IMG/VR virus record: IMGVR_UViG_3300020048_000049
Length of the DNA: 57,420 nt
DNA from: an uncultured virus (IMG/VR IMGVR_UViG_3300020048_000049)
Lineage: Duplodnaviria > Heunggongvirae > Uroviricota > Caudoviricetes
Reading direction: 5' to 3' (one strand)
The notes below the pieces were generated by a model. It saw only the letters and a list, made by a program, of their open reading frames with translations, did not search any database and had not been told where the DNA came from. A program made the position numbers and the translations under genes. This document shows, piece by piece, positions 262 through 52,892 of this stretch; positions within the stretch are counted from its first letter, which is position 1; every line of letters begins with the position of its first letter.

Positions 262-483
262 ATTGTTATAGGTCGTATAAATTAAAAAAAAGAATAGGGG
301 TTATTAGCCCCTTATCTTTAAGCTATTTTGTTTTTTTCCTTATTCCAAACACCATATGATTTTGCATAAGGATTACCTCCTACCATTTTATCATATACCT
401 TTACTACTGTACCTGTTGGCAGGTCGTTTAAGATACAACTGTTTGTACTAAACATATCATACTCAGTAGCTCCAATACGCTCG

Positions 484-764
484 TTATGTGCCATTTTAGG
501 ACACCCTTGCAATCTCATACACTTCATCAATTAAATGGTAGTGAGTTGCAAATTTCACCATTGCATAATTTAAACTACTTGCTTCAATATGTACCATTAA
601 ATCTTTATCCATACTTCTGTATTGGAATAAAAAACGGCACATAACAGCACCTAAAAAAGATGGCTTGCTTTGTTCTTCTAATAAACTTTTGTCTGTGTTC
701 ATAATTTTGTTCTTTTAATTAAGTTTCGAGGTATTAATCAGCCACCTCGTTTAGCTGCAAAACG
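484..764 (+). mobile_element. Integron-type gene cassette at a secondary GTT site
   Basis: Begins G|TTATGTGCC (483-492). Complementary GGCACATAAC at 636-645 opens an imperfect inverted repeat that ends at G|TT (764-766). Confidence 0.75.
496..702 (-). CDS. Cassette-borne hypothetical protein
   Basis: 68 aa ORF starting inside the attC-like site; stop lies next to the cassette end. Confidence 0.6.
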   Translation of the reverse strand: MNTDKSLLEEQSKPSFLGAVMCRFLFQYRSMDKDLMVHIEASSLNYAMVKFATHYHLIDEVYEIARVS

Positions 765-770
765 TTTAGG
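636..770 (+). other. attC-like recombination site
   Basis: GCACATAAC-agcac-CTAAAAAAGATGGCT ... AGCCACCTCGTTTAG-ctgcaaaac-GTT; the arms are partially complementary. Confidence 0.7.
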
Positions 771-880
771 GCTAATTTTTCGTTTAATGCTTTTTTGCTT
801 GCGGCTTTAATGTAGACTTGCATATTATATTTGGTTAGTTGGTTATATAGTTATAGGTCGTATAAATTAAAAAAAAGAAT

Positions 881-1078
881 TTAACGTGTATAGATTAATC
901 CATCATTTTTTGCTTTGATACGGCTTTTAATAGTGCCATCTTTTTTCAAAAATTCATCTTGAGTAAAATCTCTATAATGAATAGCTCCATAGCCGAATTT
1001 TATTTCATATTCAGTAGGCTTTCTGTGATAAGTAATTTCTTTATTTACTTTATTCCAAGGTAATTGTGATTTTTCCAT
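881..1078 (-). CDS. Hypothetical protein
   Basis: ORF between two minus-strand class I elements. Confidence 0.75.
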   Translation of the reverse strand: MEKSQLPWNKVNKEITYHRKPTEYEIKFGYGAIHYRDFTQDEFLKKDGTIKSRIKAKNDGLIYTR

Positions 1079-1166
1079 TGTGTTTGTTTTGGTTGGTATA
1101 TTGTTATAGGTCGTATAAATTAAAAAAAAGAAATTCTTTTTTATCTTACTATTGACCTATAACATT

Positions 1167-1388
1167 ATGAATAATGCAAAATTAGAAAATGTACATATAT
1201 CTCAAATTTCTTCAGGGGATACTATTGAGTTTGGCGGTAAATTAACTACTGTAAGCGCAAATAACATAAAGAGGGATTCCTTCATAGGTATTACCTTGTT
1301 TGGTGATAGCTATCATTTAGGACATAAACCCGTTAAAAAAGTTGTTGCATGGATTGGTGAAAACGGAAATTTAGTTCCTATCAGATAG
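1167..1388 (+). CDS. Hypothetical protein (leaderless)
   Basis: ATG 5 nt after GACCTATA. Confidence 0.75.
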   Translation: MNNAKLENVHISQISSGDTIEFGGKLTTVSANNIKRDSFIGITLFGDSYHLGHKPVKKVVAWIGENGNLVPIR

Positions 1389-1426
1389 GGACTTTCTTTT
1401 TTTCTGTTTGGTTGACCTATAATAAT

Positions 1427-1488
1427 ATAAACAGAAAGACCCCGAAAATGTAATAAGTTCGGCAGGGTTAATCCGCTCCTACCTTATA
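1427..1488 (+). ncRNA. Repeated structured small-RNA-like unit, copy 1 (CCGA/TCGG variant)
   Basis: Class I element, then core GGCAGGGTTAATCC...CCTTATA and T-run. Confidence 0.55.
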
Positions 1489-1643
1489 CTTTTTTTTGTT
1501 AAAATTTGGCTTTTCTTTTTTTTCTTTTTGTTGACCTATAAAGGTATAAGACAAACAAACAGAGTTTAATTTTAAAATAAAACAAATTCTTTTTTTTCTT
1601 ATTGTTGACCTATAACCATATAAACCACATAAACCAATATACT

Positions 1644-2207
1644 ATGAAAAATGTAATTTTATCAAAAAATCAATTAATTGCTGAATTAAGCGAATTTCGC
1701 AAAAATGTTTCAGCTACGGGAACGGCTTTTGGTTCTGTTGTTTACTTTGTTGACGAATCGGGTTCAAAAACAGTAAACAAGCAAAAAGTGTTACAAAAGT
1801 TGGTACGAGTTGCTATTACTTTAGGCTCTAACTACGAAGGACGTATCAATAGAGATTTAGTAAAAAATGAAGAAGAAGCAAATTTTACAGCACAATCAAT
1901 GAGTGGTAAAAAACACTTAAATGATGAAGGGGTTTTATTAACTGATACAAAAACAGAAACTAAAATTTACCTTAATGCAGTGGTTGAAAATCATGCTAAA
2001 CCCGATACAATTTACTTTCACGAAGGTAAGCGTATTAGCAAGGCTGATGCAATCGAGAAAGGTTTATTTATGCCTTCTTACTTCACTGAAAAAACAACAA
2101 TGGGGCGTGGCAATATGAGCGATGCAAAGGACTTTCACATTATCAATACGAATTTAGATAATGTTATTAGTATTACTTTAAACAAGGTAAAACGAATAGT
2201 AAAATAA
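1644..2207 (+). CDS. Hypothetical protein, paralog of 13185-13775
   Basis: Shared YFxDESGSxTVNKQKxLQKLVR and LFMPSYFT...GRGNMS blocks. Confidence 0.85.
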   Translation: MKNVILSKNQLIAELSEFRKNVSATGTAFGSVVYFVDESGSKTVNKQKVLQKLVRVAITLGSNYEGRINRDLVKNEEEANFTAQSMSGKKHLNDEGVLLTDTKTETKIYLNAVVENHAKPDTIYFHEGKRISKADAIEKGLFMPSYFTEKTTMGRGNMSDAKDFHIINTNLDNVISITLNKVKRIVK

Positions 2208-2213
2208 TAAGAT

Positions 2214-2242
2214 AGGGGGTTAAAATCCCCTTTCTTTTTTTT
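2214..2242 (+). terminator. Intrinsic terminator whose T-tract is the start of the next class I element
   Basis: AGGGGG-ttaaaa-TCCCCT followed by TTCTTTTTTTT. Confidence 0.7.
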
Positions 2243-2729
2243 CTTTTCTTTGACCTATAATAATATAACCAATCAAACTCTCCCTTATGAAATCAAATAT
2301 TAAAATTTTTATTGCATCTTCAATTTCATTCTTAGTAATTGTTAAATTGGTAATGGATTTTTTTGAGGTGAATTAAGTATCTCTCCCTTTCTTTTTTTTA
2401 AAAACTTTGACCTATAATAATATAACCAATTAAACTCTCCCTATATGCAAAAAATATTAGAATGTTCGTTAATTATAATAAGTAGCTTTAAAGGTTTCGT
2501 TTTATGCGGAATTGTAATTAGTTTAACTGTTGCGCTATTGTTATTTTAATTCTTTTTTTAAAAAACTTTGACCTATAATAATATGCGAAACAAAAACTTA
2601 AGGTAAAGATAGCCTACGACCAACTCTCCCTCTGTGAGAAACGCCTTTGTGCAAAATGTTTGTGAGTTAAACCACAAAGTACCCGCTGAGAAATTAGCGG
2701 GATTTTTTTATATCTCTCCCTAAAAAAAA

Positions 2730-2798
2730 GTTTGTTGCAGGGGTGGATTAACCCTGCCCATTTTGGGGGTAAGCTCCAGTGGCAAACTGTCTGCTTAT
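2730..2798 (-). ncRNA. Repeated small-RNA-like unit, copy 2 (inverted)
   Basis: Reverse complement of ATAAGCAGACAGTTTGCCACTGGAGCTTACCCCC...GGCAGGGTTAATCC, with its own minus-strand class I element. Confidence 0.6.
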
Positions 2799-2919
2799 AT
2801 TATTATAGGTCGTGTTTTTTAAAAAAAAGAAAAACTCTCCCTATTCTTTTTAGATTAAAACAAAATTCTTTTTTTTATTATTGTTGACCTATAATATTAT
2901 AACCAAGCAAACTAAAACC

Positions 2920-3697: not shown

Positions 3698-3770
3698 ATA
3701 ACAGAGAGATGCCTTACCAAGCAGAATCTACCTCCAAAACTGGGCAGGGTTAATCCACCTCTACCTTATA
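3698..3770 (+). ncRNA. Repeated small-RNA-like unit, copy 3 (diverged)
   Basis: Core GGGCAGGGTTAATCCAC..CCTTATA after class I element. Confidence 0.5.
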
Positions 3771-3845
3771 TTTTTTTTACAACTCTCCCTTTTCTTTTTT
3801 TTATTTTTTATGACCTATAAAGATATAACCAAACAAACTGAAATT

Positions 3846-6920: not shown

Positions 6921-6989
6921 ATAAGCAGACAGTTTGCCACTGGAGCTTACCCCCAAAAATGGGCAGGGTTAATCCGCCCCTACCTTATA
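6921..6989 (+). ncRNA. Repeated small-RNA-like unit, copy 4
   Basis: Full consensus copy after class I element. Confidence 0.6.
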
Positions 6990-7149
6990 TTTTTTTTTGT
7001 TAAAATTTGACTTTTCTTTTTTTTCTTTTCTTTGACCTATACGTTTTATGATTTTGTTTTATTTTAAATAAGTTTGTTTAGATTGAAACTAAATTCTTTT
7101 TTTTACGTATGATGACCTATAAGGATATAACCAATTAAAACTTAAAGAC

Positions 7150-8103
7150 ATGGCACACAATTTAAATGAAAAAGATGGCAAAACTAGTTTTGCAAGTACT
7201 GAAAACGCTTGGCACGGTTTAGGGCAAATCGTTGAAAAAGCAATGACTTCTGAAGAAGCTATTAAATTAGCTAATTTGGATTATGACGTAGTAAAAGAAC
7301 CAATTTTTTGCGAAGGGCAAAATGGTATCGGCTCGGTTATTCCAAATAACTTTGTAACAAAACGCACTGATAACAACGAGATTTTTGGAATCGTTGGGAA
7401 TCGTTACGAAATTGTTCAAAACCGTGATGCCTTTGGATTTTTTGATGCTATTGTTGGAACGGGACAAGCAATTTTTGAAACGGCAGGAGTTTTGGGCAAA
7501 GGGGAACGCATTTTCATATCTGCAAAAATGCCTTCATACGTTCGTATTAACGGCACTGATGATGTAACAGAGATGTATACCATGTTAACAAGCTCACATG
7601 ATGGCACGGGGGCAGTAATTGCAGCTATTACGCCTATTCGTGTGGTGTGTCAAAACACTTTAAAAATGGCTTTAAAGGATACGAAAAACAAAATTTCTAT
7701 TCGCCATACGACAAGTGCAGAATCAAAATTGGCAGATGCTCACAAATTATTAGGGATTGTTAACACTTATACAGAGGCTTTAAATGCTTCGGTTAACCAA
7801 CTCGCCCTAAAAAAAGTTTCTGACTTGCAAGTTAAAAACTTAATTGCTGAGTTATTCCCTAGCGATGCAAAGGTTGAAACTCGAATTACAAATATTCGTG
7901 ATGCAGTTTCTAAGTCGTATTTTGAGGGTGTTGGACAAGAAAAAGTTTTAGGTACAGCGTGGGGGTTCTTAAATGGTGTTACTCACTACTTAAGCCACGA
8001 AAAAGAGTACAAAGACTCTGACACTAAGTTTGAGAACCTTGTAATGGACGGGGCAAGCTCAAAGGTAACAGATAGAGCAATGGAATTATTAATGGCTTTA
8101 TAA
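7150..8103 (+). CDS. DUF932 family phage/plasmid protein (TIGR03299-like)
   Basis: AWHGLG, YEIVQNRDAF, FETAGVL, SSHDG, TPIRVVCQNTL, IRHT and GTAWGFLNGVT motifs. Confidence 0.9.
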   Translation: MAHNLNEKDGKTSFASTENAWHGLGQIVEKAMTSEEAIKLANLDYDVVKEPIFCEGQNGIGSVIPNNFVTKRTDNNEIFGIVGNRYEIVQNRDAFGFFDAIVGTGQAIFETAGVLGKGERIFISAKMPSYVRINGTDDVTEMYTMLTSSHDGTGAVIAAITPIRVVCQNTLKMALKDTKNKISIRHTTSAESKLADAHKLLGIVNTYTEALNASVNQLALKKVSDLQVKNLIAELFPSDAKVETRITNIRDAVSKSYFEGVGQEKVLGTAWGFLNGVTHYLSHEKEYKDSDTKFENLVMDGASSKVTDRAMELLMAL

Positions 8104-8349
8104 GGCTTAAAATGAAGGGGGGAGTTTTTAACTCTCCCTTTCTTTTTTTTCTTTTTGTTGACCTATAGAGATAGGAATCAATAAAATGAAAAACATGGAA
8201 AATCAAGAAGCACAATTGTACACTTTTCACGCTCCTATTTTAACTGCAAATGCAGTATCTAGTATGAGCAAGTAAAAGCAAAGTGTTAAGAGAATAGCGA
8301 AGGGATTAGGAACCCTTCGCTTTTTTATTTACTCTCCCCAGAAAAAAAG

Positions 8350-8416
8350 TATAAGGCAGGTGTGGATTAACCCTGCCCAATTTGGGGGTAGACTCCGAGT
8401 GGCAAACTGTCTGTCT
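8350..8416 (-). ncRNA. Repeated small-RNA-like unit, copy 5 (inverted)
   Basis: Reverse-complement copy with minus-strand class I element. Confidence 0.6.
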
Positions 8417-8524
8417 GATTATATAGGTCTCCCTTTTGAAAAAAAAGAAAGTTTGTTTTAATTTAAAAAGAATTCTTTTTTTTCTTATTGCTGACCTATA
8501 AGTTTAACCAAACAAACCAACGCC

Positions 8525-10559: not shown

Positions 10560-10755
10560 AAAGATTTTTTAGTTTGGTTTGTAAAGTGTTGGGGTGGTAG
10601 CCAACAAAAAGATAGAGACGGGATTTATTTCTCGTCTCTTTTCTTTTTTTTAAATTCTATGACCTATAAAGATATAAGCAGACAGTTTGCCACTAGGAGC
10701 TTACCCCCAATTTTGGGCAGGGTTAATCCGCTCCTGCCTTATACTTTCGTTTGGC
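10560..10755 (+). repeat. ~195 bp near-identical duplication with 11471-11664 (two hairpins, class I element, small-RNA unit)
   Basis: AAAGATTTTTTAGTTTGGTTTGTAAAGTGTTGGGGTGGTAGCCAAC...CTCGTCTC is identical in both; diverged copy at ~3586-3778. Confidence 0.9.
10674..10743 (+). ncRNA. Repeated small-RNA-like unit, copy 6
   Basis: Full consensus copy. Confidence 0.6.
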
Positions 10756-11584: not shown

Positions 11585-11652
11585 ATAAGCAGACAGTTTG
11601 CCACTGGAGCTTACCCCACAAAGTGGCAGGGTTAATCCGCTCCTGCCTTATA
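11585..11652 (+). ncRNA. Repeated small-RNA-like unit, copy 7 (CCAC/GTGG variant)
   Basis: Identical to copy 10 at 31965. Confidence 0.6.
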
Positions 11653-11738
11653 TTTTCGTTTGGTTAGTTCTTTTTAGATTTAAGGTTCTTTTTTTTCTTT
11701 TTATTGACCTATAATAATATAACCAAACAACCAAAGAT

Positions 11739-12161: not shown

Positions 12162-12231
12162 ATAAGACAGACAGTTTGCCACTGGAGTCTATCACCGAAA
12201 AGGGTTAGGATTAATCCGCTCCTGCCTTATA
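12162..12231 (+). ncRNA. Repeated small-RNA-like unit, copy 8 (diverged core)
   Basis: CAGACAGTTTGCCACTGGAG...TAATCCGCTCCTGCCTTATA. Confidence 0.55.
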
Positions 12232-12326
12232 TTTTCGTATTGATAAAATTTGTTTTTAGATTTAAAGCAATTCTTTTTTTTCTTTTCTTTGACCTATAAT
12301 AGTATAACCAACTAAACAAACGTATT

Positions 12327-12959
12327 ATGAAACAAGATGCAGTTAAGGAAATTAGAATTGAGAATAAAATTTTAAGAATTTTCCAGGATACATATGGCGA
12401 TGACCCTCGTACTTGGGATAACCTTGCAAAGATGATTTTTGTTGGCAAACATAAAGGCTTGGGTGACAAACATGACTTTGTTTTTGAAGGATTTTATAAT
12501 GGACGTCAAGATTTTATTGAAAAAGGGGAAATTGAATTGAGAAAACATTTTAAGGATGTTGCAGTTATTAAAGCCGTACATTTATACGAGCATAGCGGTA
12601 GTTCAATTTCAACAAAATTTGAATATCCATATGATTGTCATTGGGATTCAGGCACTATTGGCTTTGCAGTTATTACAAAGACTGATATTAAAGAAAATTT
12701 TAGTGTTAAACGTGTAACAAAGGCTTTATTAGAACAAGCTGAACGTATTTTGGAGGGGGAAATTGAAACGCTCGACCAATATATTACAGGGGACGTTTAT
12801 CGCTTTGAAGTTGTAAAAGTTTCTAAATGCGAACACGACCATGAGCATGAAGAGCATGAGGATAGCTGTGGAGGCTTTTACGGCAGTGATTTTGCCAACA
12901 ACGGTATAACTGACCATATTTCAGATGAACGTCTTAGAGAAGCTTTAAAAGCAGCTTAA
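12327..12959 (+). CDS. Hypothetical phage/plasmid protein
   Basis: LYEHSG, WDSGTIGF, YITGDVY and DSCGGFYG motifs. Confidence 0.85.
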   Translation: MKQDAVKEIRIENKILRIFQDTYGDDPRTWDNLAKMIFVGKHKGLGDKHDFVFEGFYNGRQDFIEKGEIELRKHFKDVAVIKAVHLYEHSGSSISTKFEYPYDCHWDSGTIGFAVITKTDIKENFSVKRVTKALLEQAERILEGEIETLDQYITGDVYRFEVVKVSKCEHDHEHEEHEDSCGGFYGSDFANNGITDHISDERLREALKAA

Positions 12960-13021: not shown

Positions 13022-13091
13022 ATAAGCAGACAGTTTGCCACTAGGAGCTTACCCCCAATTTTGGGCAGGGTTAATCCGCTCCTACCTTATA
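13022..13091 (+). ncRNA. Repeated small-RNA-like unit, copy 9
   Basis: Full consensus copy. Confidence 0.6.
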
Positions 13092-13184
13092 TTTTTTTTT
13101 GTTAAAATTTGTTTTTAAATTAAAACAAATTCTTTTTTTTCTTTTTGCTGACCTATAAAGATATAACCACATAAACCAAACGAT

Positions 13185-13775
13185 ATGAAAACTAAAAGAG
13201 AAAAATTCGAAAAAGCAGTAGTAATTTCTACTAAACAATTAATTGATATTTTTGTGAATGAGGATAAACAATCTACGTTTAAAGGTTGTCAATTCGCTCA
13301 CATAGTATATTTCACTGACGAAAGTGGTTCTCGTACTGTAAACAAGCAAAAGGCTTTGCAAAAGTTGGTACGTACTTGTATTACAGTTGGCTCGTCTTAT
13401 CAAGATAGAATCAATAGAGATTTAGAAAAACGTGGGGAAGAGGGGAATTTTACTTCTCAATCTCAAAGTGGGCAAACTCCAATCAACAAGTATGTATCTC
13501 AATCTGACAAAAGTCAAAAGTACAATTTGAAAGCAGTGGTTGAATATTTCAACACTCCTGACACTATCTATTATGAAAATAATAAAGTAAGACACTTCAA
13601 AGATAATTTGGATAAAATTAATTCTGACTTGTTTATGCCGTCTTATTTCACTCCTTCTACTACAAGTGGACGAGGGAATATGAGTGAGGAAAAAGACTTT
13701 AGCTTTTTCACTGTGGGCTTTGATAAGATTTATTCTTTAAGAATCAAAGGAATTTTATATAAGGTAGAAAAATAA
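13185..13775 (+). CDS. Hypothetical protein, paralog of 1644-2207
   Basis: Shared sequence blocks. Confidence 0.85.
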   Translation: MKTKREKFEKAVVISTKQLIDIFVNEDKQSTFKGCQFAHIVYFTDESGSRTVNKQKALQKLVRTCITVGSSYQDRINRDLEKRGEEGNFTSQSQSGQTPINKYVSQSDKSQKYNLKAVVEYFNTPDTIYYENNKVRHFKDNLDKINSDLFMPSYFTPSTTSGRGNMSEEKDFSFFTVGFDKIYSLRIKGILYKVEK

Positions 13776-13833
13776 TAAGATAGGGAGTTAAACTCTCCCT
13801 TTCTTTTTTTTTAAAACTTTGACCTATAATGAT

Positions 13834-14157
13834 ATGAGAACTTCACAAGATGCAAAAAGACTTTCACTAGAGAACATAGATTCTCTGTTTGCTAATCAAA
13901 AAGCTGAGGAGCAAAGAAAAATAGATGAGAAGAAAAAATTCGATGCTCTCCCTATAATAGGATTCTACTTCACTATTATGAGTGATGATAGAGATTTATT
14001 AGAGGAGGAGGATGAAGACCCTTGTCAAAAATATTCTCAACGAGGATGGGGCAAAACGCAAGAACTTGCTAAGGAGGATTCTATTTCAAGATTCAAAGAA
14101 CAATGGGGACATGACTTAGAAATTTATTGGATTAAATGTAATGGAATAATTGATTAA
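13834..14157 (+). CDS. Hypothetical protein (leaderless)
   Basis: ATG 5 nt after GACCTATA. Confidence 0.75.
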   Translation: MRTSQDAKRLSLENIDSLFANQKAEEQRKIDEKKKFDALPIIGFYFTIMSDDRDLLEEEDEDPCQKYSQRGWGKTQELAKEDSISRFKEQWGHDLEIYWIKCNGIID

Positions 14158-14208
14158 CTCTCCCTTTCTTTTTTTAAATTAAACTGACCTATAATAAAAA
14201 AACCTACT

Positions 14209-14688
14209 ATGAATTATAAAGCATTAGTTAAACAAACTGAAAAACAAATTACAGCCCAAAATAATATAGCTAAGGCTGTGGCTAAGGAGCAGTCTGAAAT
14301 TCTTCTTGACTTCGCTAAAGATATTTTTGAGTATCTATTGTTCATAAATGATTCAAAAGATTTTAGATTTAGTGCAGAGGCACATTATTATAAAGGAAAT
14401 AAAACAAATCCGTTAATAGAGGAACGTGCTAAAATTGGCTCTAAAATACCTTATGCAATAGAAAGTGCTCAAAAAGATATTAAAGAAAACAAGTCACCGC
14501 AAATAAGAACCAACGGCATGAGTTATTTCTTTAGTTCTGTTGTAATTAAATTACATATCAACGAAAATTTTATTCCTAGCGTTTCTTATGAAACCGTATA
14601 CTTAGGTAAAGTTGATAAACATAACTTTACTGACAAAGAAGAATTTGTAAAGTCTTTTACTGAGTTTTTAATAAAGCACCGCAAATAA
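14209..14688 (+). CDS. Hypothetical protein
   Basis: ORF between elements. Confidence 0.8.
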   Translation: MNYKALVKQTEKQITAQNNIAKAVAKEQSEILLDFAKDIFEYLLFINDSKDFRFSAEAHYYKGNKTNPLIEERAKIGSKIPYAIESAQKDIKENKSPQIRTNGMSYFFSSVVIKLHINENFIPSVSYETVYLGKVDKHNFTDKEEFVKSFTEFLIKHRK

Positions 14689-14730
14689 CCTCTCCCTTTC
14701 TTTTTTTTAAAAACCTTGACCTATAATAAT

Positions 14731-14997
14731 ATGAAAAAAGCAACTAAAATAAAGAAAGGATTTTATCCTATCTCATACGCTGACATCAAAAGAATGATTG
14801 GCTATTGTGAGGGTTGGGGATATGGCAACAAAGATACTTGTAAGTATGTTGCTGAGAACACTATCGAGCAGATAGAATTAGAATACCCTGAATTGCCAAT
14901 CAAAAAAGACTTGCATAGCGACTTGATTAGCATTGCCCACGACATAAATAACGGGGCAAATGTTAAGGGTAAAGAATTGCTATTGCCAATAAATTAA
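14731..14997 (+). CDS. Hypothetical protein (leaderless)
   Basis: ATG 5 nt after GACCTATA. Confidence 0.75.
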   Translation: MKKATKIKKGFYPISYADIKRMIGYCEGWGYGNKDTCKYVAENTIEQIELEYPELPIKKDLHSDLISIAHDINNGANVKGKELLLPIN

Positions 14998-15038
14998 CTC
15001 TCCCTTTCTTTTTTTAAAAAACCTTGACCTATAATAAT

Positions 15039-15566: not shown

Positions 15567-15619
15567 CTCTCCCTTTCTTTTTTAAAAAAACCTTGACCTA
15601 TAATATAAAACCAAACGAC

Positions 15620-16078: not shown

Positions 16079-16111
16079 ATCTTTTTTAAAAAAACCTTGA
16101 CCTATAATAAT

Positions 16112-16426: not shown

Positions 16427-16511
16427 ATTAAAAAGAAAAGGGGGACGTTAAACTCTCCCTTTCTTTTTTTTAAATAACTTGACCTATAAAGATATAACCA
16501 AAAAAAACATT

Positions 16512-17033: not shown

Positions 17034-17067
17034 ATTCTTTTTTTAAATTAAACTGACCTATAAGTCT

Positions 17068-17397: not shown

Positions 17398-17431
17398 ATT
17401 CTTTTTTTATAAATCTTTGACCTATAAGTCT

Positions 17432-17794: not shown

Positions 17795-17840
17795 TTCTTT
17801 TTTTTAAATAACCTGACCTATAATAATAAATAAAAACGAT

Positions 17841-18661: not shown

Positions 18662-18729
18662 GATAAAGGGGCTAAAAACCCCTTTAAATTTAAAAGAAAT
18701 TGATTATATTTATAATTAAACAACTTACC

Positions 18730-18933: not shown

Positions 18934-18967
18934 ATTCTTTTTTTTAATTTCCTTGACCTATAATATC

Positions 18968-39293: not shown

Positions 39294-39296
39294 TAG

Positions 39297-39369
39297 TAAC
39301 CCATATCGGAATCGAACCGATATTCCAAGCTTGAGGGGCTTGTTTCCTATTCCATTAGAAGAATGGGTC
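39297..39369 (-). tRNA. tRNA-Glu(CTC)
   Basis: Acceptor GACCCAT/ATGGGTT; CAAGC-CC-CTC-AA-GCTTG; ATCGG-TTCGATT-CCGAT. Confidence 0.9.
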
Positions 39370-39374
39370 ATTTG

Positions 39375-39445
39375 TAGCGCCACGGATAATTGAAATCCGA
39401 TTTACGAGGTGAAAGCCCGTTGTCCTACCCTTAGACGATGGCGCC
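39375..39445 (-). tRNA. tRNA-Glu(TTC), atypical T arm
   Basis: GGCGCCA/TGGCGCT; ACGGG-CT-TTC-AC-CTCGT; CGGAT-TTCAATT-ATCCG. Confidence 0.85.
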
Positions 39446-39453
39446 ATTTTTTG

Positions 39454-39527
39454 TATCCCTGACGGTAATCGAAACCGCATCTGCTGATTGAAAGTCAACT
39501 ATCCTGTACCACTTAGAAGACAGGGAC
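39454..39527 (-). tRNA. tRNA-Glu(TTC), atypical T arm
   Basis: GTCCCTG/CAGGGAT; GTTGA-CT-TTC-AA-TCAGC; GCGGT-TTCGATT-ACCGT. Confidence 0.85.
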
Positions 39528-39723
39528 AAATTTATATATAAAAAAAAAGAGGCAATCATTTCTGACTACCTCTCGCAATAAGTGGGCTTCACACCCTAAA
39601 CTTCCTTATTAACACAAAGCATAGCCAGTAACTAGAGTTTCCTCTTGTTCGGCTAAACGTTCTATGTTAATTAAATTTCTCATTTTGTTTTGTTCTTTTT
39701 ACTTTTTGTGTTCTTTGGTCTTG

Positions 39724-39797
39724 TAGCAGGAGAGCGATTCGAACGCCCGATTTCCACATTATGAGCGTGGTGAGATAAACCCCTTCTCCATCCTGCA
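39724..39797 (-). tRNA. tRNA-Met(CAT), initiator-like
   Basis: TGCAGGA/TCCTGCT with 1:72 mismatch; A11-U24; CCACG-CT-CAT-AA-TGTGG; TTCGAAT loop. Confidence 0.9.
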
Positions 39798-39837
39798 ATG
39801 TATCTTTAAATAGTTTACTTTTTTATTAATTAATAAG

Positions 39838-39876
39838 TTATACGCAAATATATAATTAAAGTTTCAAAAAAACAAG
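39838..39876 (-). promoter_or_regulatory. Overlapping ECF-type and Bacteroidota sigma-A-type promoters upstream of the tRNA cluster
   Basis: GAAAC-N16-CGTATAA (39865-39838) and CTTG-N20-TATATTTG (39876-39845). Confidence 0.65.
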
Positions 39877-40731
39877 CATTTCTTTAAATTTTTCTTCAAC
39901 AAATGTTTTTTTATATTTTCCCATGTCTTTAATTACATAAGATTCATATCCTTTTTCGGCTATTTCTTTTAATTTAATCTTGTCTCTATTTTGAACTTGT
40001 TCAACAGAATGTTTTTCAGTTATCTTTTCATAGTGCCACTTACCATTCCAAAGAACAGCTAATTTTAAATCTTCAATTATTACATCTGCGTCCCAACCAT
40101 TAAACATTGGCTCGTTAAATTTAACCTCATTAAATCTTTTTTCACATAGCTCTGCAAAATAAGTTTCATTTTTACTTCGTCTATTTTTACTTTGAACTGA
40201 AACAGAAGCAAGGCCGCCTTTCCTGCCACGACCATTTAAGTTTCCTGATGTTGCGGCACAGCTTCTAGAACAAAAATTTATATTCGTAGTTAATTTTTCA
40301 CAATGTGGACATTTATGTTTACTTTTTTCAAGTCTCTCTTTTTTTTCTTTTTTTTGTTTTATTTTAAACGGGTTCCTTTTTAATGATTCTGTAATTTTTA
40401 ACTTGCTTTCTTCTGAATGTTTCCTTAATTTACCATTAAATGTACCAGCACAATTCATTGAGCAAAAGTTGTTTCTACCTTGTTTTATTTCACATAATTT
40501 TTTAAAAAAAATATTTCCGCAATTTGCACATGGTATGTCTTTAGCTGTACTTACATATTGACTACTACATTTAACAGAGCAAAATTTAACTCGCCCCCTG
40601 TTATGGACTAGTTCGTGTTTAATGTTTGATTTATTAACATAAAATGTATTTTGACAATTATAACATTCACATGGTAGTTTTTCTTTTGATTTAGATAAAT
40701 CAAATTGTTCATTTGTATAAAGTGGTTTCAT
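39856..40731 (-). CDS. Putative homing endonuclease (Cys-rich repeats, NUMOD3-like motif, PD-(D/E)xK/DUF559-like C-terminus)
   Basis: Repeated FCSxxC; HSEESKLKITES; SKNE...WDADV...WNGKWHY...RDKIK. Confidence 0.75.
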   Translation of the reverse strand: MKPLYTNEQFDLSKSKEKLPCECYNCQNTFYVNKSNIKHELVHNRGRVKFCSVKCSSQYVSTAKDIPCANCGNIFFKKLCEIKQGRNNFCSMNCAGTFNGKLRKHSEESKLKITESLKRNPFKIKQKKEKKERLEKSKHKCPHCEKLTTNINFCSRSCAATSGNLNGRGRKGGLASVSVQSKNRRSKNETYFAELCEKRFNEVKFNEPMFNGWDADVIIEDLKLAVLWNGKWHYEKITEKHSVEQVQNRDKIKLKEIAEKGYESYVIKDMGKYKKTFVEEKFKEMLVFLKL

Positions 40732-40820
40732 TTTTCTTTTGTTTATAAATAGTAATAAAAAAGTAGCGCAATTCAAAGTCGAACTAAATCTTTTTTTTAT
40801 TTTTGTTGACCTATACCAAT

Positions 40821-41096
40821 ATGAAAGAAGTAGAAGGCATAAAACAAAAGGTATCAATATCACTATTTGTATACCATATCACAGGATTTGGACTGAACTA
40901 TATTTGCTATGGAGATGCTAAACGCCTTGTAATTGCTGACTCCGATGGATTGGGAGATATAATCTCAGATACTGAATATAAAGGAGAACTTTATTATGAA
41001 GAGTTTCTTGAGATTGCAAAAAACCTACACTTAAAAATGATTGAAGAACAGCTAACGCCTTTTGTGAGAGATGTTAAATGTGGTCTCAATAACTAA
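40821..41096 (+). CDS. Hypothetical protein (leaderless)
   Basis: ATG 5 nt after GACCTATA. Confidence 0.7.
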   Translation: MKEVEGIKQKVSISLFVYHITGFGLNYICYGDAKRLVIADSDGLGDIISDTEYKGELYYEEFLEIAKNLHLKMIEEQLTPFVRDVKCGLNN

Positions 41097-43902: not shown

Positions 43903-43956
43903 AATAAAAAGAAAAACATTTGATTTTTATATCTCTTAATATTATATTTTATATAA

Positions 43957-44030
43957 GAAGAGGTAGCTCAGGTGATAGAGCAATAGTTTGAAACGCTATG
44001 TGTCGCTGGTTTAACTCCATGCTCTCTTCA
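43957..44030 (+). tRNA. tRNA-Phe(GAA), degenerate or pseudo
   Basis: GAAGAGG/TCTCTTC; ATAGT-TT-GAA-AC-GCTAT; irregular T arm GCTGG-TTTAACT-CCATGC. Confidence 0.7.
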
Positions 44031-46556: not shown

Positions 46557-46571
46557 ATATCTAAATCTCCC

Positions 46572-46602
46572 TTTGTTGGGAGATTTTTTTTTAATATATT
46601 TG
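46572..46602 (+). promoter_or_regulatory. Bacteroidota sigma-A-type promoter
   Basis: TTTG-N19-TATATTTG. Confidence 0.55.
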
Positions 46603-46605
46603 TAC

Positions 46606-47667
46606 ATGGCAAAAAAACCCGACATAGGCTCCAAAGAATTTACAAAGCTGCTTGAGCAAACAGCTCATCTCCCTCATAAAAATTACATCAAACGAATTGA
46701 CTCGAAGATGTTTTCTTTAGATTTAAATAAAGTTTATAATTATAAACCAGAGCTACTTGCCATTAAAGAATTCATTCGCTGTGTAGATTTGCTACAGGCT
46801 AGAAATCCTGGAATCTCCCTGCAAGATGCTGCCTTAAGAATCCCTGGCGTACAAAAACTGATAATAAAAGCTGAGTCTCCCCACAGGCCAAAGCTCGAAG
46901 AGCTGGCTATAAATACCATTAGAGAAATATATCAGGTCCCTGAATATATTGATATGAAAGTTTTTATCCAGCCAAGACTCTCCCTGGATACTGAACAGGA
47001 CCATAACCCTGATTCCTTTCTAGGATTAACTCTGGAACAAAAGAATAATATGAGAGATGAAATACAGAAGCGAGTTATCCTGAACGGGCTGGTTCACGGA
47101 AGCAGCATGCATGTCTGGAAAGAAATTTATTATTTGGTATCCAGTGAGCTGGACGAAATCTCTTCAGACTTAAAAGAACTTTATGATTACTATACCTCAA
47201 CACTTGGAATTCAATTATGGTTAATGGACCCAGATGAGTTTCAGGAAACGATTGAAGAAGGAAATCAGATGACTCAAGGATTTAATGAGCTGAAGTTTGA
47301 TAAACAAAAAGGATTTGGTGGACAGGTCCAGGCTAAGGCAATTAATTTCCCTGTCCTGCTTCATGAACTTAATAAAGGAGTCATCGACTGGTTAATATCT
47401 GGCGCCATTCCAAAAGAATATTCTGAAGAAGAATTAAAATATTATTATTCTAAAGCTGATGACTATATCAATGAACCCTGGCATTATACGCTGTCTCCAA
47501 CACTTTGGTCAGGCCTGTTGGATGTGGCTAAGGTGCCAAATGAAAAAATTCCTAAATTAATTTCACATTTAGTGAAACTTTCTTACGAAGAACTCGTACA
47601 ACTGTTTCGAATGATTCAGGATTCACCTGAACAGGCAACTCAAAAAATTAAAGGATGGAATCTCTAA
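46606..47667 (+). CDS. Hypothetical large-phage protein
   Basis: 353 aa; KRVILNGLVHGSS and FPVLLHELNKGV motifs. Confidence 0.85.
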   Translation: MAKKPDIGSKEFTKLLEQTAHLPHKNYIKRIDSKMFSLDLNKVYNYKPELLAIKEFIRCVDLLQARNPGISLQDAALRIPGVQKLIIKAESPHRPKLEELAINTIREIYQVPEYIDMKVFIQPRLSLDTEQDHNPDSFLGLTLEQKNNMRDEIQKRVILNGLVHGSSMHVWKEIYYLVSSELDEISSDLKELYDYYTSTLGIQLWLMDPDEFQETIEEGNQMTQGFNELKFDKQKGFGGQVQAKAINFPVLLHELNKGVIDWLISGAIPKEYSEEELKYYYSKADDYINEPWHYTLSPTLWSGLLDVAKVPNEKIPKLISHLVKLSYEELVQLFRMIQDSPEQATQKIKGWNL

Positions 47668-48098: not shown

Positions 48099-48164
48099 CC
48101 TCTTTCTTTTTTTTTAAATAACCTGACCTATAATAATATAAACAACAACTTAATACTGAAAATT

Positions 48165-48881
48165 ATGAAAACTACTGAAAACAAAAAAGCAAAACAAGTT
48201 GAACAAGTAGCACTTGATAAAGCGTGTGCAACCGCAATGCAAACAGGAACAAAATCTGAGGCAAGCAATGCTTTCAATCAATTATATAAGCGTTACAATA
48301 AAGCGATTACTTTTGAGTTAATGAAATTCGTTAAGGCTGACAAAGAAGTAATTGAAGATTTGACGCAAGAAGTTTTTATCAAAGTATTTGAGAAAATCAA
48401 TACATATAATTTCTCTGTTGTTTTTTCAACTTGGTTATACAAAATTGCACACAATCACGCAATTGATTACAAGCGTAATGATAAAGTTGAAATATTAAGT
48501 GTTGAGAAATTATCTAAAGGATTTAATGGAGATGAGGATTCTGGTGAGTTATCTTTTCAACTTAAAGATTTAACTATTCAAGAGTTCCAAGGCTTAGAAA
48601 GAAAAGAACGTGCTGAAATGGTTCTTGATGCCTTAGCAAACATTAAGTCTGATGATGCAAGACAAATCGTTAAGTTATTATTTCTTGAAGATATGTCTTA
48701 TGAGAAAGTAGCCGAAGAAGTTAAAATGCCTTTAGGTACAATCAAAGCATTAATGTTTCGTGCTAAAGAAGAGATGAAAAATTATCTTTCAGTTAAAAGA
48801 AAAGATTTCGAATACGGTAGACTTTGCACCACAAAATTAAAAGTTACACACCGTGAAACTGAAGATGTAGAGTTGTCATAA
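48165..48881 (+). CDS. ECF-type RNA polymerase sigma-70 factor (SigW-like)
   Basis: Region 2: AFNQLYKRY...EDLTQEVFIKVF...FSTWLYKIAHNHAIDYKR. Region 4: MSYEKVAEEVKMPLGTIKALMFRAK. Confidence 0.95.
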   Translation: MKTTENKKAKQVEQVALDKACATAMQTGTKSEASNAFNQLYKRYNKAITFELMKFVKADKEVIEDLTQEVFIKVFEKINTYNFSVVFSTWLYKIAHNHAIDYKRNDKVEILSVEKLSKGFNGDEDSGELSFQLKDLTIQEFQGLERKERAEMVLDALANIKSDDARQIVKLLFLEDMSYEKVAEEVKMPLGTIKALMFRAKEEMKNYLSVKRKDFEYGRLCTTKLKVTHRETEDVELS

Positions 48882-48896: not shown

Positions 48897-48939
48897 AAAA
48901 AGTCCTACCGATTCAACATTGGTGGGACTTTTGTTTTTT
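48897..48939 (+). terminator. Intrinsic terminator after the sigma gene
   Basis: AAAAGTCCTACC...GGTGGGACTTTT plus T-run. Confidence 0.7.
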
Positions 48940-49802: not shown

Positions 49803-49830
49803 GAAACTTTCCTGTTTCGTTTTCGTATAA
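49803..49830 (+). promoter_or_regulatory. Class II ECF-type promoter
   Basis: GAAAC-N16-CGTATAA. Confidence 0.75.
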
Positions 49831-49836
49831 TAACTT

Positions 49837-50061
49837 ATGAAAACATTATTCCTTTTTATCTCAATTATATTTCTTGCTTCCTGTGAGAAAAATAAAAACT
49901 GTACCTGCCAGGTGAGAACTGATATCACAGTAAGGACCAGCATCGGCAGCTACATGACAACAACAAAAAGTACATCCACAAAAAAGAAAGCTACATGCGA
50001 CAGCTATGTCGTAACTTCTGGATACACAACAACTTACAACTCCTGTACAGAAATTCCTTAA
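49837..50061 (+). CDS. Small Cys-rich lipoprotein
   Basis: Lipobox FLASC followed by KNCTC. Confidence 0.75.
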   Translation: MKTLFLFISIIFLASCEKNKNCTCQVRTDITVRTSIGSYMTTTKSTSTKKKATCDSYVVTSGYTTTYNSCTEIP

Positions 50062-50067
50062 TTAATT

Positions 50068-50095
50068 GAAACTTTTTTAAATTCCTGACGTATAA
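50068..50095 (+). promoter_or_regulatory. Class II ECF-type promoter
   Basis: GAAAC-N16-CGTATAA. Confidence 0.75.
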
Positions 50096-50217
50096 ATATT
50101 TGAAAAGAGCTGCTTTGCCATAGTCGCTTATTTATTTCAATCGGAAGAAACTTCAGGACCCTACTCTTGAAGTTTCTTTTTTTTAAATAACCTGACCTAT
50201 AAAAGAAAAAACACACT

Positions 50218-50661
50218 ATGGAAAATAATACACCGCCCATCTCAAAAGCTCAAAGAGCATTAAGACTAATCATATTTAGTTTAATTTTGATAACTCCTCC
50301 TGTAGGAATATTCTTATTCTTAAATTCTGGTTCTCCAGCTGTTTCTTTTGCATCTATTGGGCTTGCTGCTGTTGCAGGTATATTTCTTGCATTTACCTGT
50401 AATGCAGATTACTATTTTAGAATAGAGCTCTTAGAATACAGGGTATTAAAAATTACAACTCAATCAGTTGGATTAGATTCAGTTATAACAAATGAAATAA
50501 CATTTGTTGTGCAGCAAAAAACTTATGGCGTAATCAGAAATGAATTTAATTGGATTACAATTGAAACAGAACTTACTGAAGAAGAGTCAATTAGAATTGT
50601 TGATAATAAGTTTGTAACTTTAAGTGAGCCTGTTGAGGAAGAAATTTATAGAAAACCTTAA
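50218..50661 (+). CDS. Membrane protein
   Basis: Two N-terminal hydrophobic helices. Confidence 0.75.
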   Translation: MENNTPPISKAQRALRLIIFSLILITPPVGIFLFLNSGSPAVSFASIGLAAVAGIFLAFTCNADYYFRIELLEYRVLKITTQSVGLDSVITNEITFVVQQKTYGVIRNEFNWITIETELTEEESIRIVDNKFVTLSEPVEEEIYRKP

Positions 50662-50668
50662 TAAGCCT

Positions 50669-50696
50669 GAAACTTTTTCAAACAGGATACGTATAA
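50669..50696 (+). promoter_or_regulatory. Class II ECF-type promoter
   Basis: GAAAC-N16-CGTATAA. Confidence 0.75.
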
Positions 50697-50714
50697 TAAA
50701 GAAATTAGATAATT

Positions 50715-51188
50715 ATGGATAACTCGAAGGACATAGATTTTAAGTTTGCAAAGAATTGGAAATCTTTTCTTGCGTGGCATGATGCTTATGAAACAAAAGC
50801 AAAATGTTCTCCTATGTGGGATGACCAAGCAAAAAAAATTGAATCCTGCTTTGAATCAACAAATCCAAATATTGTGGATTGGAAATCATTATGGAAAGAT
50901 TTTGCTAAATGGTATAAAACTCTTTGGGATACAAAAGGTATTGTTCTTTGGGCTGAACAAAGACGCCAAATAGAAACCTGTATGCTTAAACAATTAAATA
51001 GCCTGAATAGCGAATCATTCGTTCTAGTTTATTTAATGAATGGCAAACCGCAGGTAGATTCTAATACCATGAATTATTGGGACGCAGTTCGTACAAAAAA
51101 AGAACTTGACGGTGATTCAAATGGATTTGGCGGAGATGAACGTATGGACAAGATTACTATTATTAACCTGAATAAATTAATATCATAA
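50715..51188 (+). CDS. Trp-rich hypothetical protein with internal repeat
   Basis: WKSF..W...WDDQAKKIESC resembles WKDF..W...WAEQRRQIETC. Confidence 0.75.
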   Translation: MDNSKDIDFKFAKNWKSFLAWHDAYETKAKCSPMWDDQAKKIESCFESTNPNIVDWKSLWKDFAKWYKTLWDTKGIVLWAEQRRQIETCMLKQLNSLNSESFVLVYLMNGKPQVDSNTMNYWDAVRTKKELDGDSNGFGGDERMDKITIINLNKLIS

Positions 51189-51189
51189 T

Positions 51190-51417
51190 ATGCATGTACT
51201 AGATTTAATAATGTATTTCGTTTGTGTTGCCGCTATTTGGGGCATCATGGAATTCGGATGGAAAGGAAATATCACACAGGAAATTGGTGGTCTTATAGGG
51301 ATGTTTGTCATAATTATATTTACAATTATATACATAATCTTTTTTGTACTGGCAGGTTATAACTGGTGCGACTTTAATATTAATTGGACTGCTGTGTCTG
51401 GCTGGTTCAAATGGTAA
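51190..51417 (+). CDS. Small membrane protein
   Basis: Two hydrophobic segments. Confidence 0.7.
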   Translation: MHVLDLIMYFVCVAAIWGIMEFGWKGNITQEIGGLIGMFVIIIFTIIYIIFFVLAGYNWCDFNINWTAVSGWFKW

Positions 51418-51428
51418 ATTAAAATAAT

Positions 51429-51626
51429 ATGGTTGTAAATATTGTAACAAAAACTGTAACACTCAATAAGCTGGACATGACAGGAGAATCCTGGAGAGGT
51501 GATGTATACGGCATAAAGTTTAAAGATGTACGTACAGATACAAAAAAAGAAATAGAGCAGCTTGCTGGTTATAAAGTAATTTATGCCCATAGGAATAAAA
51601 AAGTGTTAATGATTTATAATAAATAA
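51429..51626 (+). CDS. Hypothetical protein
   Basis: ORF ending before the next element. Confidence 0.65.
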   Translation: MVVNIVTKTVTLNKLDMTGESWRGDVYGIKFKDVRTDTKKEIEQLAGYKVIYAHRNKKVLMIYNK

Positions 51627-51674
51627 ACAGGATTCTTTTTTTAAGAATCTTTGACCTATAAATAAAAAAACAAT

Positions 51675-51908
51675 ATGAAAACTACACTTCCAGACAATGT
51701 GATGACACAGATTTCTGATATCACAGAGAATAAACTTAAAAAAAACAATATCCCATTCACAAGAAATGATACTGTTTTTGATTTAAAAAAAGAACATCAA
51801 ATGAAACTTATGCAATTTCAAAGCGAGGCTACACTGGAATTGGTAGAGTCTGGTGTTATTACTCCAGAAATGATTGAAGCTGAAATGAAAATGTTTGCAC
51901 GTGGATAG
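51675..51908 (+). CDS. Hypothetical protein
   Basis: ORF after element. Confidence 0.7.
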   Translation: MKTTLPDNVMTQISDITENKLKKNNIPFTRNDTVFDLKKEHQMKLMQFQSEATLELVESGVITPEMIEAEMKMFARG

Positions 51909-52119
51909 CAAATACAAAGACAGGGTTGACGCCTGGCGTCAAGATACAGAGTTGGTAGTTCATAAACATATCTTTGGTAACTGGTCCGTAAGAGGAAACG
52001 TTACCAATTTCTTTTATAAGCTGGAGATGGATGAGGATAAAGCAAATACATATGCGGCAGAGCTAAACAGGAACAAAGTCAGTGAACAAGATATTTTTTT
52101 AAAAGATTTGCAATATTAA
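51895..52119 (+). CDS. Hypothetical protein
   Basis: Overlaps upstream stop; start uncertain. Confidence 0.55.
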   Translation: MHVDSKYKDRVDAWRQDTELVVHKHIFGNWSVRGNVTNFFYKLEMDEDKANTYAAELNRNKVSEQDIFLKDLQY

Positions 52120-52138
52120 AATATTTGTTATATATTTG
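52107..52138 (+). promoter_or_regulatory. Bacteroidota sigma-A-type promoter
   Basis: TTTG-N20-TATATTTG. Confidence 0.7.
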
Positions 52139-52243
52139 TCCTGTTGTAAAAAATTATAATTTTGTTTTCATATGCACTTAGTAAAGTTTACAACAACAAG
52201 AAATCCTGCCTGAAAGACTGCCTGGTCCTACAGGATGTGGAAT

Positions 52244-52278
52244 AAAAAAACCCCTGATGTACGAGTCAGGGGTTTTTT
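52244..52278 (+). terminator. Intrinsic terminator (possibly bidirectional)
   Basis: AAAAAAACCCCTGA-tgtacgag-TCAGGGGTTTTTT. Confidence 0.8.
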
Positions 52279-52334
52279 GTTTTGACTGTTTACTGTCAAT
52301 GGTCAAATTGCTTTAGATTTAAATAAAAATACCT

Positions 52335-52362
52335 GAAACTTTTTTAAGTTTTTTACGTACAA
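52335..52362 (+). promoter_or_regulatory. Class II ECF-type promoter
   Basis: GAAAC-N16-CGTACAA. Confidence 0.65.
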
Positions 52363-52463
52363 AGAAGTCCACGGGAGTTAATGACTCCTGAAATTATTTC
52401 CTGGTTCTGAGCTGTACTTGCAAAGCGTGGCGAAAGTTCCAGGGAATTTTTTATCGTATCACT

Positions 52464-52493
52464 ATCGGATATTATCGGATATTATCGGATATT
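52464..52493 (+). repeat. Tandem repeat (ATCGGATATT)x3
   Basis: Read directly. Confidence 0.85.
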
Positions 52494-52589
52494 CTTTTTT
52501 TTATAATACCTGACCTATATAATTGGTGCCCATAACTTTTATTCAGGATTCTACTTTTCTTTTTTTTAAATAACCTGACCTATACCAAT

Positions 52590-52742
52590 ATGAAACCAGA
52601 CTTTACAAAACTAAAATACTACAGCGAGTCAGCGTACTGCTGTCCAAGCTGCGGAACCCCTTCTAGTGAATGTGAGAGCAATGGAAACTGGGGTTACATC
52701 TGTTCTAACTGTGGTGAGGATTTTGAAACTCCTGATACATAG
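52590..52742 (+). CDS. Small zinc-ribbon protein (50 aa, leaderless)
   Basis: Translated by hand; CPSC and CSNC pairs. Confidence 0.65.
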   Translation: MKPDFTKLKYYSESAYCCPSCGTPSSECESNGNWGYICSNCGEDFETPDT

Positions 52743-52777
52743 GATTCTTTTTTTTTAAATCCTTGACCTATAATAAT

Positions 52778-52838
52778 AGAAACACAAAGACCCCGACTTG
52801 AAATAGACTCGGCAGGGTTAATCCACCCCTGCCTTATA
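52778..52838 (+). ncRNA. Repeated small-RNA-like unit, copy 11 (CCGA/TCGG variant)
   Basis: AAAGACCCCGA...TCGGCAGGGTTAATCC, as in copy 1. Confidence 0.55.
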
Positions 52839-52892
52839 TTTTCCTCCGAGATTCTATTTTTCTTTTTTTCCTTTTTCCTGACCTATAATAAT

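Follow-up and report, generated by a model that had tools for sequence, protein, structure and literature searches.

A large phage gene array with a putative lineage-specific ECF-type promoter at the head of each unit and a candidate cognate sigma factor

Introduction

In the T4-type phages RB49, phi1, PST and nt-1, repeated intergenic promoters precede single ORFans in variable regions of the genome. As described in the available portions of two reports (PMC2839356, PMC4122927), these promoter/stem-loop (PeSL) cassettes unite a host sigma70-like promoter, a terminator stem-loop and a Shine-Dalgarno sequence, occur ≈52 times per genome over several regions, and have been shown to form mini-circles. 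Here we analyze 57,420 nucleotides of DNA from an uncultured member of the Caudoviricetes (IMG/VR record IMGVR_UViG_3300020048_000049), referred to throughout as the window, in which a 28-bp element, TTCTTTTTTT-N10-GACCTATA, stands at the head of 125 mostly single-gene units. Set beside those portions of the PeSL literature, the array shares the repeated promoter-like sequence before single genes, the nearby upstream stop codon, insertions and deletions at the element between close relatives, and the lack of any dedicated recombinase found. It differs in that 125 copies form one 52-kb run, the putative promoter is of extracytoplasmic function (ECF) type and not of host type, and a candidate cognate sigma factor is encoded within the array. 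Three defining PeSL features are thus missing here: the promoter is not of host type, a hairpin stands at only 23 of 120 copies, and 0 of 64 leadered genes have a Shine-Dalgarno site, another 35 genes being leaderless.

Integron arrays, with their integrase IntI, attI site, palindromic attC sites and promoterless cassettes under one promoter, provide a second comparison. The array resembles them as a long same-strand row of unrelated single genes with one end more variable than the other, but no integrase was found in its incomplete scaffold, the element profile, taken without an attC model, shows no dyad, and every unit has its own start signature. The array works like the PeSLs without being one, and it is not an integron. 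A host-takeover module is also known from SPO1. As far as the consulted part of PMC6445280 describes them, such modules in Kayvirus and SPO1-like phages likewise cluster small early genes under many promoters, but they span ≈8 kb and use host-type promoters. Where jumbo phages lack an RNA polymerase, they encode sigma factors whose presumed targets are phage-specific promoters; the consulted parts of PMC7824862 and PMC13282480 name minimal and RpoD-like phage sigma factors and leave ECF sigma factors unmentioned, the term "ECF" having no match in PMC7824862. Our literature search, from which subscription papers were mostly excluded, returned no account of the element, of an ECF-driven phage array, or of the sigma-A arrays of Bacteroidota phages described below. 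What we observe is an array of unusual size in which each gene has its promoter and the motif differs by lineage, and from it we infer a re-keyed sigma/promoter pair.

The repeated element and its array

The window is the final 57 kb of a 119,420-bp virus record (G000), whose scaffold reaches 62 kb to the left and 4.5 kb to the right of the array. It contains 114 exact matches to the element, 109 on the + strand and 5 on the − strand, from 267–294 (−) to 52860–52887 (+), whereas 100 dinucleotide shuffles gave a mean of 0.00 and a maximum of 0. A relaxed rule finds 120 copies on the + strand, 117 with the same spacing and 3 with a spacing one base longer, so that with the five − copies the array comprises 125 element-headed units over 267–52887. 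A motif scan of the whole scaffold found the copies confined to this array, the first 62 kb containing no good copy and five weak, chance-like matches. In the copy at 1394–1421 (+), for example, TTC and a T-tract are followed by a 10-nt spacer and GACCTATA; the former would correspond to a −35 region and the latter to a −10. The position profile shows no dyad symmetry, and the element resembles neither the sigma70 consensus nor the generally known Bacteroidota sigma-A consensus, which occurs 16 times elsewhere in the scaffold, a few of these by chance inside genes.

Elements are spaced by a median of 354 bp (mean 435), with 340 bp in the first 60 units and 622 bp in the last 30. One open reading frame (ORF) of at least 40 aa is present in 86 of the 120 + strand units, two to four in 14 and none in 20, and the upstream stop codon directly adjoins the element in 75. 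A strict terminator hairpin abuts the T-tract, which then doubles as its U-tract, in 23 of 120 copies (control 0.5%) and in 12 of 101 in the related phage G001; most units are therefore not insulated. No Shine-Dalgarno site precedes any of the 64 leadered array genes. The array diverges at a back-to-back pair of elements at 1105–1161, from which three − strand units run leftwards (elements 267–294, 852–879 and 1105–1132; ORFs 85–261, 734–823 and 881–1078), and the G001 array opens with the same divergent arrangement. The array is unlikely to be an artefact of assembly, as positions 267–52892 contain no N gap and contigs of three further studies span many of the elements. These counts agree with the preliminary description of the window, which had reported a fixed-end element recurring about every 400 bp, ≈125 mostly single-gene units carrying small genes, RNA-like content or nothing, upstream stops that often abut the element, and a mismatch to the sigma-A consensus. 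Not recognized there were the array-borne ECF sigma gene, the existence of another class of promoters, and the absence of a stem-loop from most copies.

Evidence for promoter function

We compared the source phage G000 with its relatives G001, G405 and G409 and with L018, a relative's fragment; all of these genomes are fragments and none is complete. G001 consists of four contigs from a bin labelled as an archaeon, their order assigned from gene overlaps and synteny. With positions numbered from the G of GACCTATA, 96 of 120 G000 copies have T at +12 and 114 have A at +13. In 35 of the 120 an ORF begins precisely at +13, and in none does one begin at +14 to +19. The element occurs 105 times in G001, where +13 is A in 98 of 101 copies and 24 ORFs start there, and among 20 orthologous pairs of unit-leading genes, 6 lack a leader in one of these two phages and have one in the other. 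This signature argues that transcription would almost certainly start 5 nt beyond GACCTATA, in many cases at the ATG.

A further line of evidence comes from what occupies the same position elsewhere. Other Bacteroidota jumbo phages have the same layout, with a host sigma-A promoter in the slot of the element. These sigma-A arrays (G406, G407, G408, L196–L203 and L206) are built from the same small one-gene units with A-rich leaders and share 2–10 cargo genes per stretch compared with the G000 array, but their motif is TTTG-N19/21-TAnnTTTG and its copies are fewer and sparser (G408, 71 in 80 kb; G406, 26 in 80 kb; G407, 32 in 100 kb with a loose pattern). The GP88-family gene (32211–33002, +), common to all arrays compared, is headed by three different promoter types across phages: a host sigma-A promoter precedes it in eight of nine other jumbo-phage loci, and the tenth locus carries the G405 element. 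Unit-leading genes shared with G405 likewise stand behind G405's own element in nine of nine cases. Because a sigma-A promoter fills the same position in other phages, the slot is most likely a promoter slot and the element most likely a promoter. The start signature, the leaderless starts and this equivalence together lend good support to the phage-specific promoter that had been proposed from the window alone.

The element has the geometry of an ECF promoter. When sequences are aligned on the −10, the hexamers TTCTTT, ATATTC and TTAAGT coincide with the TGAAAC of the second promoter class (class II, below), each being followed by T's. The −35 hexamer with its T-tract, the 16–17-nt spacer, the C-x-T-A −10 and the fixed start distance are all present, and the hexamer itself matches no known consensus. 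In the part of PMC5758882 consulted, a T-tract near the −35 is a functional part of ECF promoters, and the Bacillus subtilis sigmaW and sigmaV promoters share with the element the −35 hexamer, T-tract, 16–17-nt spacer, C-x-T-A −10 and an autoregulatory copy preceding the sigma gene. The array element differs from those promoters in pairing TTCTTT with GACCTATA, in being phage-borne, and in its 125 copies, one per gene.

The host would belong to the Bacteroidota, since TTTG-N19/22-TAnnTTTG sites head non-array genes and Shine-Dalgarno words are missing from the leadered array genes. Many ECF sigma factors occur in Bacteroidota, and the element could be a promoter for one of these, the lineages then differing because they infect different hosts. 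Such a reader would suit the ECF-like geometry and would require no priming. We nevertheless consider it highly improbable: in the samples searched, which may not include the host, the element occurs in 0 of 81 Bacteroidia genomes, and in 401 Ignavibacteria-class genomes there is no array or excess, 3 genomes having single matches at a number equal to the control. The exact motif has four single matches and no array in IMG/VR.

The array-encoded sigma factor and lineage-specific elements

An ECF-type sigma-70 factor is encoded within the array at 48165–48881 (+) (Pfam Sigma70_r2, 8.7e-13; r4_2, 5.4e-08; TIGR02937 above cut-off). Directly before it lies an element at 48104–48132 (+), one of the three with the longer spacing; a copy in this place is weak evidence on its own, since most array genes carry one. 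Farther upstream, a terminator-like hairpin at 46563–46586 (+) closes the preceding units, and a host Bacteroidota sigma-A-type promoter (TTTG...TATATTTG; 46572–46602, +) precedes the gene for a 353-aa protein of no known family (46606–47667, +), a syntenic marker in the examined genomes of all four lineages at 46–63% identity. The best ESM Atlas match to this protein, 0.89, falls in unnamed clusters and is a lead only. No terminator was found between the 46572 promoter and the sigma gene, and another terminator-like hairpin lies directly 3′ of the latter (48898–48932, +). Given the succession of terminator, host promoter, uninterrupted run to the sigma gene and closing terminator, this unit could be read first by the host polymerase, with the site at 46572 as a putative priming promoter. 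In four of four genomes a TAnnTTTG box is present with no strict terminator ahead of the sigma gene, the −33 box being weak in G405.

Each lineage has its own element. The G405 array uses TTAAGTT-N13-(T/C)TTCTATA (69 copies in 33.6 kb), and G409 has ATATTCTTT-N12-CCCTATA (12 copies at a contig end). The three are mutually exclusive, with counts of 117/0/0 in G000, 104/0/0 in G001, 0/69/0 in G405 and 0/0/12 in G409. In five of five cases (G000, G001, L018, G405 and G409), the sigma gene occupies this locus and follows the element typical of its lineage. Sigma factors that share an element are 49% identical (60% over the L018 fragment), those with different elements 29–38%, and residues of sigma region 4.2 differ where the elements differ. 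These data suggest that the sigma factor and the element probably form a private pair. Eleven inverted elements opposite the array strand in G405 (L357/L358), all followed by (G/A)GTTGGC, are a separate feature and possibly antisense starts or decoy sites.

The class II sites, TGAAAC-N16-CGTA(T/C)A, occur in all four genomes (15 in G000, 4 in G001, 1 in G405 and 21 in G409), and a slightly wider pattern finds 16 across G000 against 0.2 expected. They match the B. subtilis-type, sigmaW-type sequence tGAAACnTTTt/CGTA and head metabolic genes across the genome (16 in G000, 21 in G409). In the window they lie at 49803, 50068, 50669, 52335 and 53026 (+; 49803–53052) and at 39865, 57155 and 57286 (−), with one more match, at 47574, inside a gene. 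Three repeats at 55770–55800, 57170–57200 and 57312–57345 that end in CTCCTGAGCCTTATA, like the 3′ end of the non-coding units, lie near opposite-strand class II promoters.

Several observations weigh against the private pair. The −10-reading residues N97, D101 and R104 of the sigma factor are invariant across lineages, and the protein is not clearly faster-evolving than its neighbors (29–49% versus 31–63% identity). The co-variation draws on three element types, which also track phylogeny. The nearest bacterial relatives of the sigma factor (35–37%, Acidobacteria) carry class II, not the element, before their own genes, with the TGAAAC/CGTA word pair in 21 of 79 upstream regions; the array sigma may read class II instead. 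Class II is not enriched above control in 81 Bacteroidia genomes and hence gains no support for a host reader. The missing portions of these fragmentary genomes may also encode other sigma factors or recombinases.

Many of these points would fit an arrangement in which the element is an immediate-early promoter for an unseen phage factor, such as a virion-carried sigma factor or polymerase, while the array sigma, as an early product, reads the class II promoters of middle genes and units turn over as described below. The class II autoregulation of the sigma relatives, the class II sites before metabolic genes genome-wide and the invariant −10-reading residues would all follow, and the host sigma-A promoters in equivalent arrays of other phages suit an immediate-early role. 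The unseen factor would, however, also have to change between lineages, and none was found in the 119 kb of G000 or the 189 kb of G409, the latter having only the array ECF sigma and an RpoD/RpoS-like sigma. The class II −35 is constant while sigma region 4.2 differs per lineage, and the phage would have no need of a host promoter that reads into the sigma gene. We consider this arrangement rather unlikely, but a serious competitor to the private pair.

Searches of viral contigs with a single sequence or an alignment found no close relative of the array sigma, and scans of metagenomes and genomes returned 2 true relatives among the 160 loci listed. Homologues of the array sigma are found on contigs of up to 538 kb; 33 relatives of the G000 type and about 70 of the G405 type could be aligned, among them some on contigs of 538 kb and 393 kb. 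Bins labelled Pacebacteria and Ignavibacteria also contain sigma homologues, and the phage array contigs L098 and L186–L189 sit in a bin labelled Woesearchaeota; in each case mis-binning is probable.

Gain and loss of units

To compare strains, contigs of four runs were aligned to positions 13140–31800 at 85% likeness; 32 of 836 pieces were listed, and their flanks were unseen. Among the pieces listed, 7 of the 13 alignment ends with at least 40 nt unaligned lie no more than 12 nt from an element (expected share 11.9%, p 3e-4), with break positions ranging from −12 to +4 around it. One polymorphic slot, seen in contigs of two other studies, lies at 18932–18962 (+). Judged from piece ends and equal depths, X4 and X5 would each have 324 extra nt between 18944 and 18932 plus a 13-nt T-tract overlap, and so carry one additional 337-nt unit at 18932. 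X3 likewise breaks at 18932. At a second slot, 15565–15605 (+), the X4 and X5 contigs cease matching at the element, and X4 has both the reference neighbor and another, a contig entering from 356 nt of different sequence. As separate observations, X3 has a 130-nt stretch in place of 40 nt just after an element (19693–19734), and an opposite-strand joint in X3 and X4 links 19734 and 23400.

Adjacent spacers are identical in 16 of 119 cases in G000 (3.5 in shuffled order) and in 12 of 97 in G001 (3.9), as expected from unequal crossing-over or conversion. Among 122 array ORFs of at least 40 aa, only 38 have G001 homologues; gene order is scrambled toward the head of the array (9 genes, Kendall tau −0.25) and conserved distally (29 genes, tau 0.88). 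A paralogous cargo pair (1644–2207 and 13185–13775, +; 49% aa identity) is similar at the DNA level from element to element (1570–2266 versus 13113–13835).

Two other accounts of these patterns can be weighed. The units might be moved by a site-specific recombinase that acts at the element and prefers the divergent head of the array, in the manner of an integron; the unit-precise insertion with its 13-nt duplication, the scrambled order and shorter units near the head, and the conserved distal order would all agree with this. Integrase PF00589 has no match in the G000 scaffold, no recombinase was found among the 82 window and 63 other proteins scanned, and the two integrases of G001 sit on contigs without listed elements. 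The element moreover has no dyad, the breaks vary in position, and every unit has a promoter, so that this account appears highly improbable. Alternatively, the repeats might be promoters only, under selection for strong expression, the breaks reflecting fast intergenic divergence and contig breaks at repeats. Six of the 13 ends do lie off the elements (20, 45 and 52 nt beyond one, at a tRNA, or inside genes), fast-diverging intergenic DNA could likewise end alignments at elements, and just 18 fixed bases are shared. A listing of joints from strain contigs was set aside as mostly a repeat artefact, its short sides of 22–57 nt being mostly element and leader. Against the repeats being promoters alone stand the same 324-nt insert in two studies, the two neighbors of 15565 in X4, the excess of identical adjacent spacers and the element-to-element paralogue; we give this account very little credence. 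No clean go-back joint of the kind expected for single-unit circles was present in assembled contigs.

Taken together, the strain contig ends and the shared but reshuffled content of G001 favor the cassette boundary proposed in the preliminary description. Its observation that the window has no recombinase also stands among the 82 proteins scanned. That the array is a dedicated, expandable library served by a recombinase is not demonstrated, no integrase having been found in the scaffold. Its analogy to PeSLs holds for function and breaks down for structure, with a stem-loop at only 23 of 120 copies and a promoter that is not host-type.

Non-coding units, cargo and genome context

Twelve non-coding units of ≈75 nt belong to one family, each at an element. 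Ten lie on the + strand, at 1427–1496, 3701–3778, 6921–6997, 10674–10751, 11585–11660, 12163–12239, 13022–13099, 31965–32040, 52778–52846 and 52915–52996, and two are inverted, at 2723–2798 and 8342–8418 (−). Seven copies occur in G001 and two in G409; with a model built from 18 copies, none was found in G405 or in the sigma-A-type stretches searched. A fold with three hairpins is 91% paired and has 15 two-sided changes, the sequences being related and the structure partly fitted, and one loop is invariant; an alternative that pairs the 5′ and 3′ ends fitted less well (83% paired; 72% for the outer helix). At the gathering score Rfam reports only tRNAs and nothing near threshold for these units; an apparent likeness to cobalamin riboswitch words found no backing there. 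Our guess is that the units could be a multi-copy small RNA acting on the host. The inverted units face a short upstream unit (2723–2893 and 8342–8500; in G001, L186 4256–4399 and 9745–9911) and lie in the same places in G000 and G001, one of them just past the DUF932 gene. This gene (7150–8103, +) is cargo shared with G001 (60%) and G405 (56%).

Two short empty units, at 32082–32154 and 52492–52556, have an element followed by TAATTGGTGC and lack the T/A start signature. Empty units of this type also occur in G409 (L373, ≈12540–12720) and are thus kept across two lineages with different elements. Units of the array also contain tRNAs for Arg (20125–20199, +) and Phe (43956–44029, +) and, within 39296–39797 (−), three for Glu and one for Met. 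These four, with a 335-aa unknown gene, run against the array direction over 39296–40863 (−), the class II site at 39865 (−) lying just upstream of the tRNAs. On its + strand the array half contains the word CTCTCCC 42 times, in terminator arms, spacers and leaders, against a single occurrence elsewhere; the word is also common in G405 spacers.

Pfam matches were obtained for just 8 of 82 window proteins, and genes in the left half of the scaffold include those for NAD-salvage, Thy1, kinase, CCA-type and amidase proteins. Likeness to T4 is limited to a 34-aa stretch resembling Gp23, the major capsid protein, in a 99-aa ORF (55087–55386, −), the core genes lying outside the scaffold. We sought a close named phage with the sigma factor, NAPRTase and three other proteins: the sigma is 26–32% identical to those of crAss-like phages, NAPRTase is 52% identical to an unannotated 462-kb record, and the three others had no match. 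The G409 array holds a ligase-like gene and a ParB-like gene, and its 176-kb arm (L377–L386) encodes the RpoD/RpoS-like sigma, RecD2, RNase R, glutamate-tRNA ligase, DnaJ, RtcB and an IS1595 transposase. Because these 176 kb have almost no match to the left half of G000, genomes of this phage family probably exceed 300 kb. Part of the window was present in 20 runs from 16 studies, mostly freshwater, with no RNA run among them. A near-duplicate flanks an N gap on both sides at 56060–56290 and is probably a scaffolding overlap.

Discussion

We favor, with a modest degree of confidence, a reading of the 125 repeats as phage-private ECF-type promoters, probably read by the array sigma and likely doubling as homology sites for the gain and loss of units. 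The 28-bp element opens every unit. Once the phage has entered the cell, RNA polymerase carrying the host sigma-A would probably read from 46572 to the sigma gene, whose product would fire all 125 copies, its own included, for positive feedback, while the sigmaW-type class II promoters would be read by another ECF sigma. The strain contigs make it very likely that units are inserted or deleted from T-tract to T-tract. The route would quite likely be ordinary short-homology recombination or unequal crossing-over during replication, with no integrase, which would also homogenize neighboring promoters.

A bolder and only tentative extension is that a clade of giant Bacteroidota phages drives its entire accessory library by a private, self-amplifying ECF sigma/promoter pair that has been re-keyed at least twice, the sigma and more than 100 promoters changing together by concerted evolution. 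If so, genes common to several lineages would have received the promoter of whichever lineage carries them, and a newly arrived unit would stay silent until it landed in a slot. The promoter would then be the landing site of an integrase-free, orthogonally locked cassette system.

The layout is not unique to these phages, as other Bacteroidota jumbo phages have it with host promoters. The lineages offer at least three sigma/promoter pairs that are candidates for orthogonality, each represented by 12 to 125 aligned promoters, and these may be useful expression parts for Bacteroidota. They also raise the evolutionary question of how a reader and its more than 100 promoters can change sequence in concert. 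Through the array, the kind of gene shuffling seen with PeSLs would reach beyond T4-like coliphages to uncultured megaphages, with more than double the number of copies. The ≈120 mostly unknown small genes of the array, together with the 12-copy small RNA candidate, would form one likely host-directed regulon.

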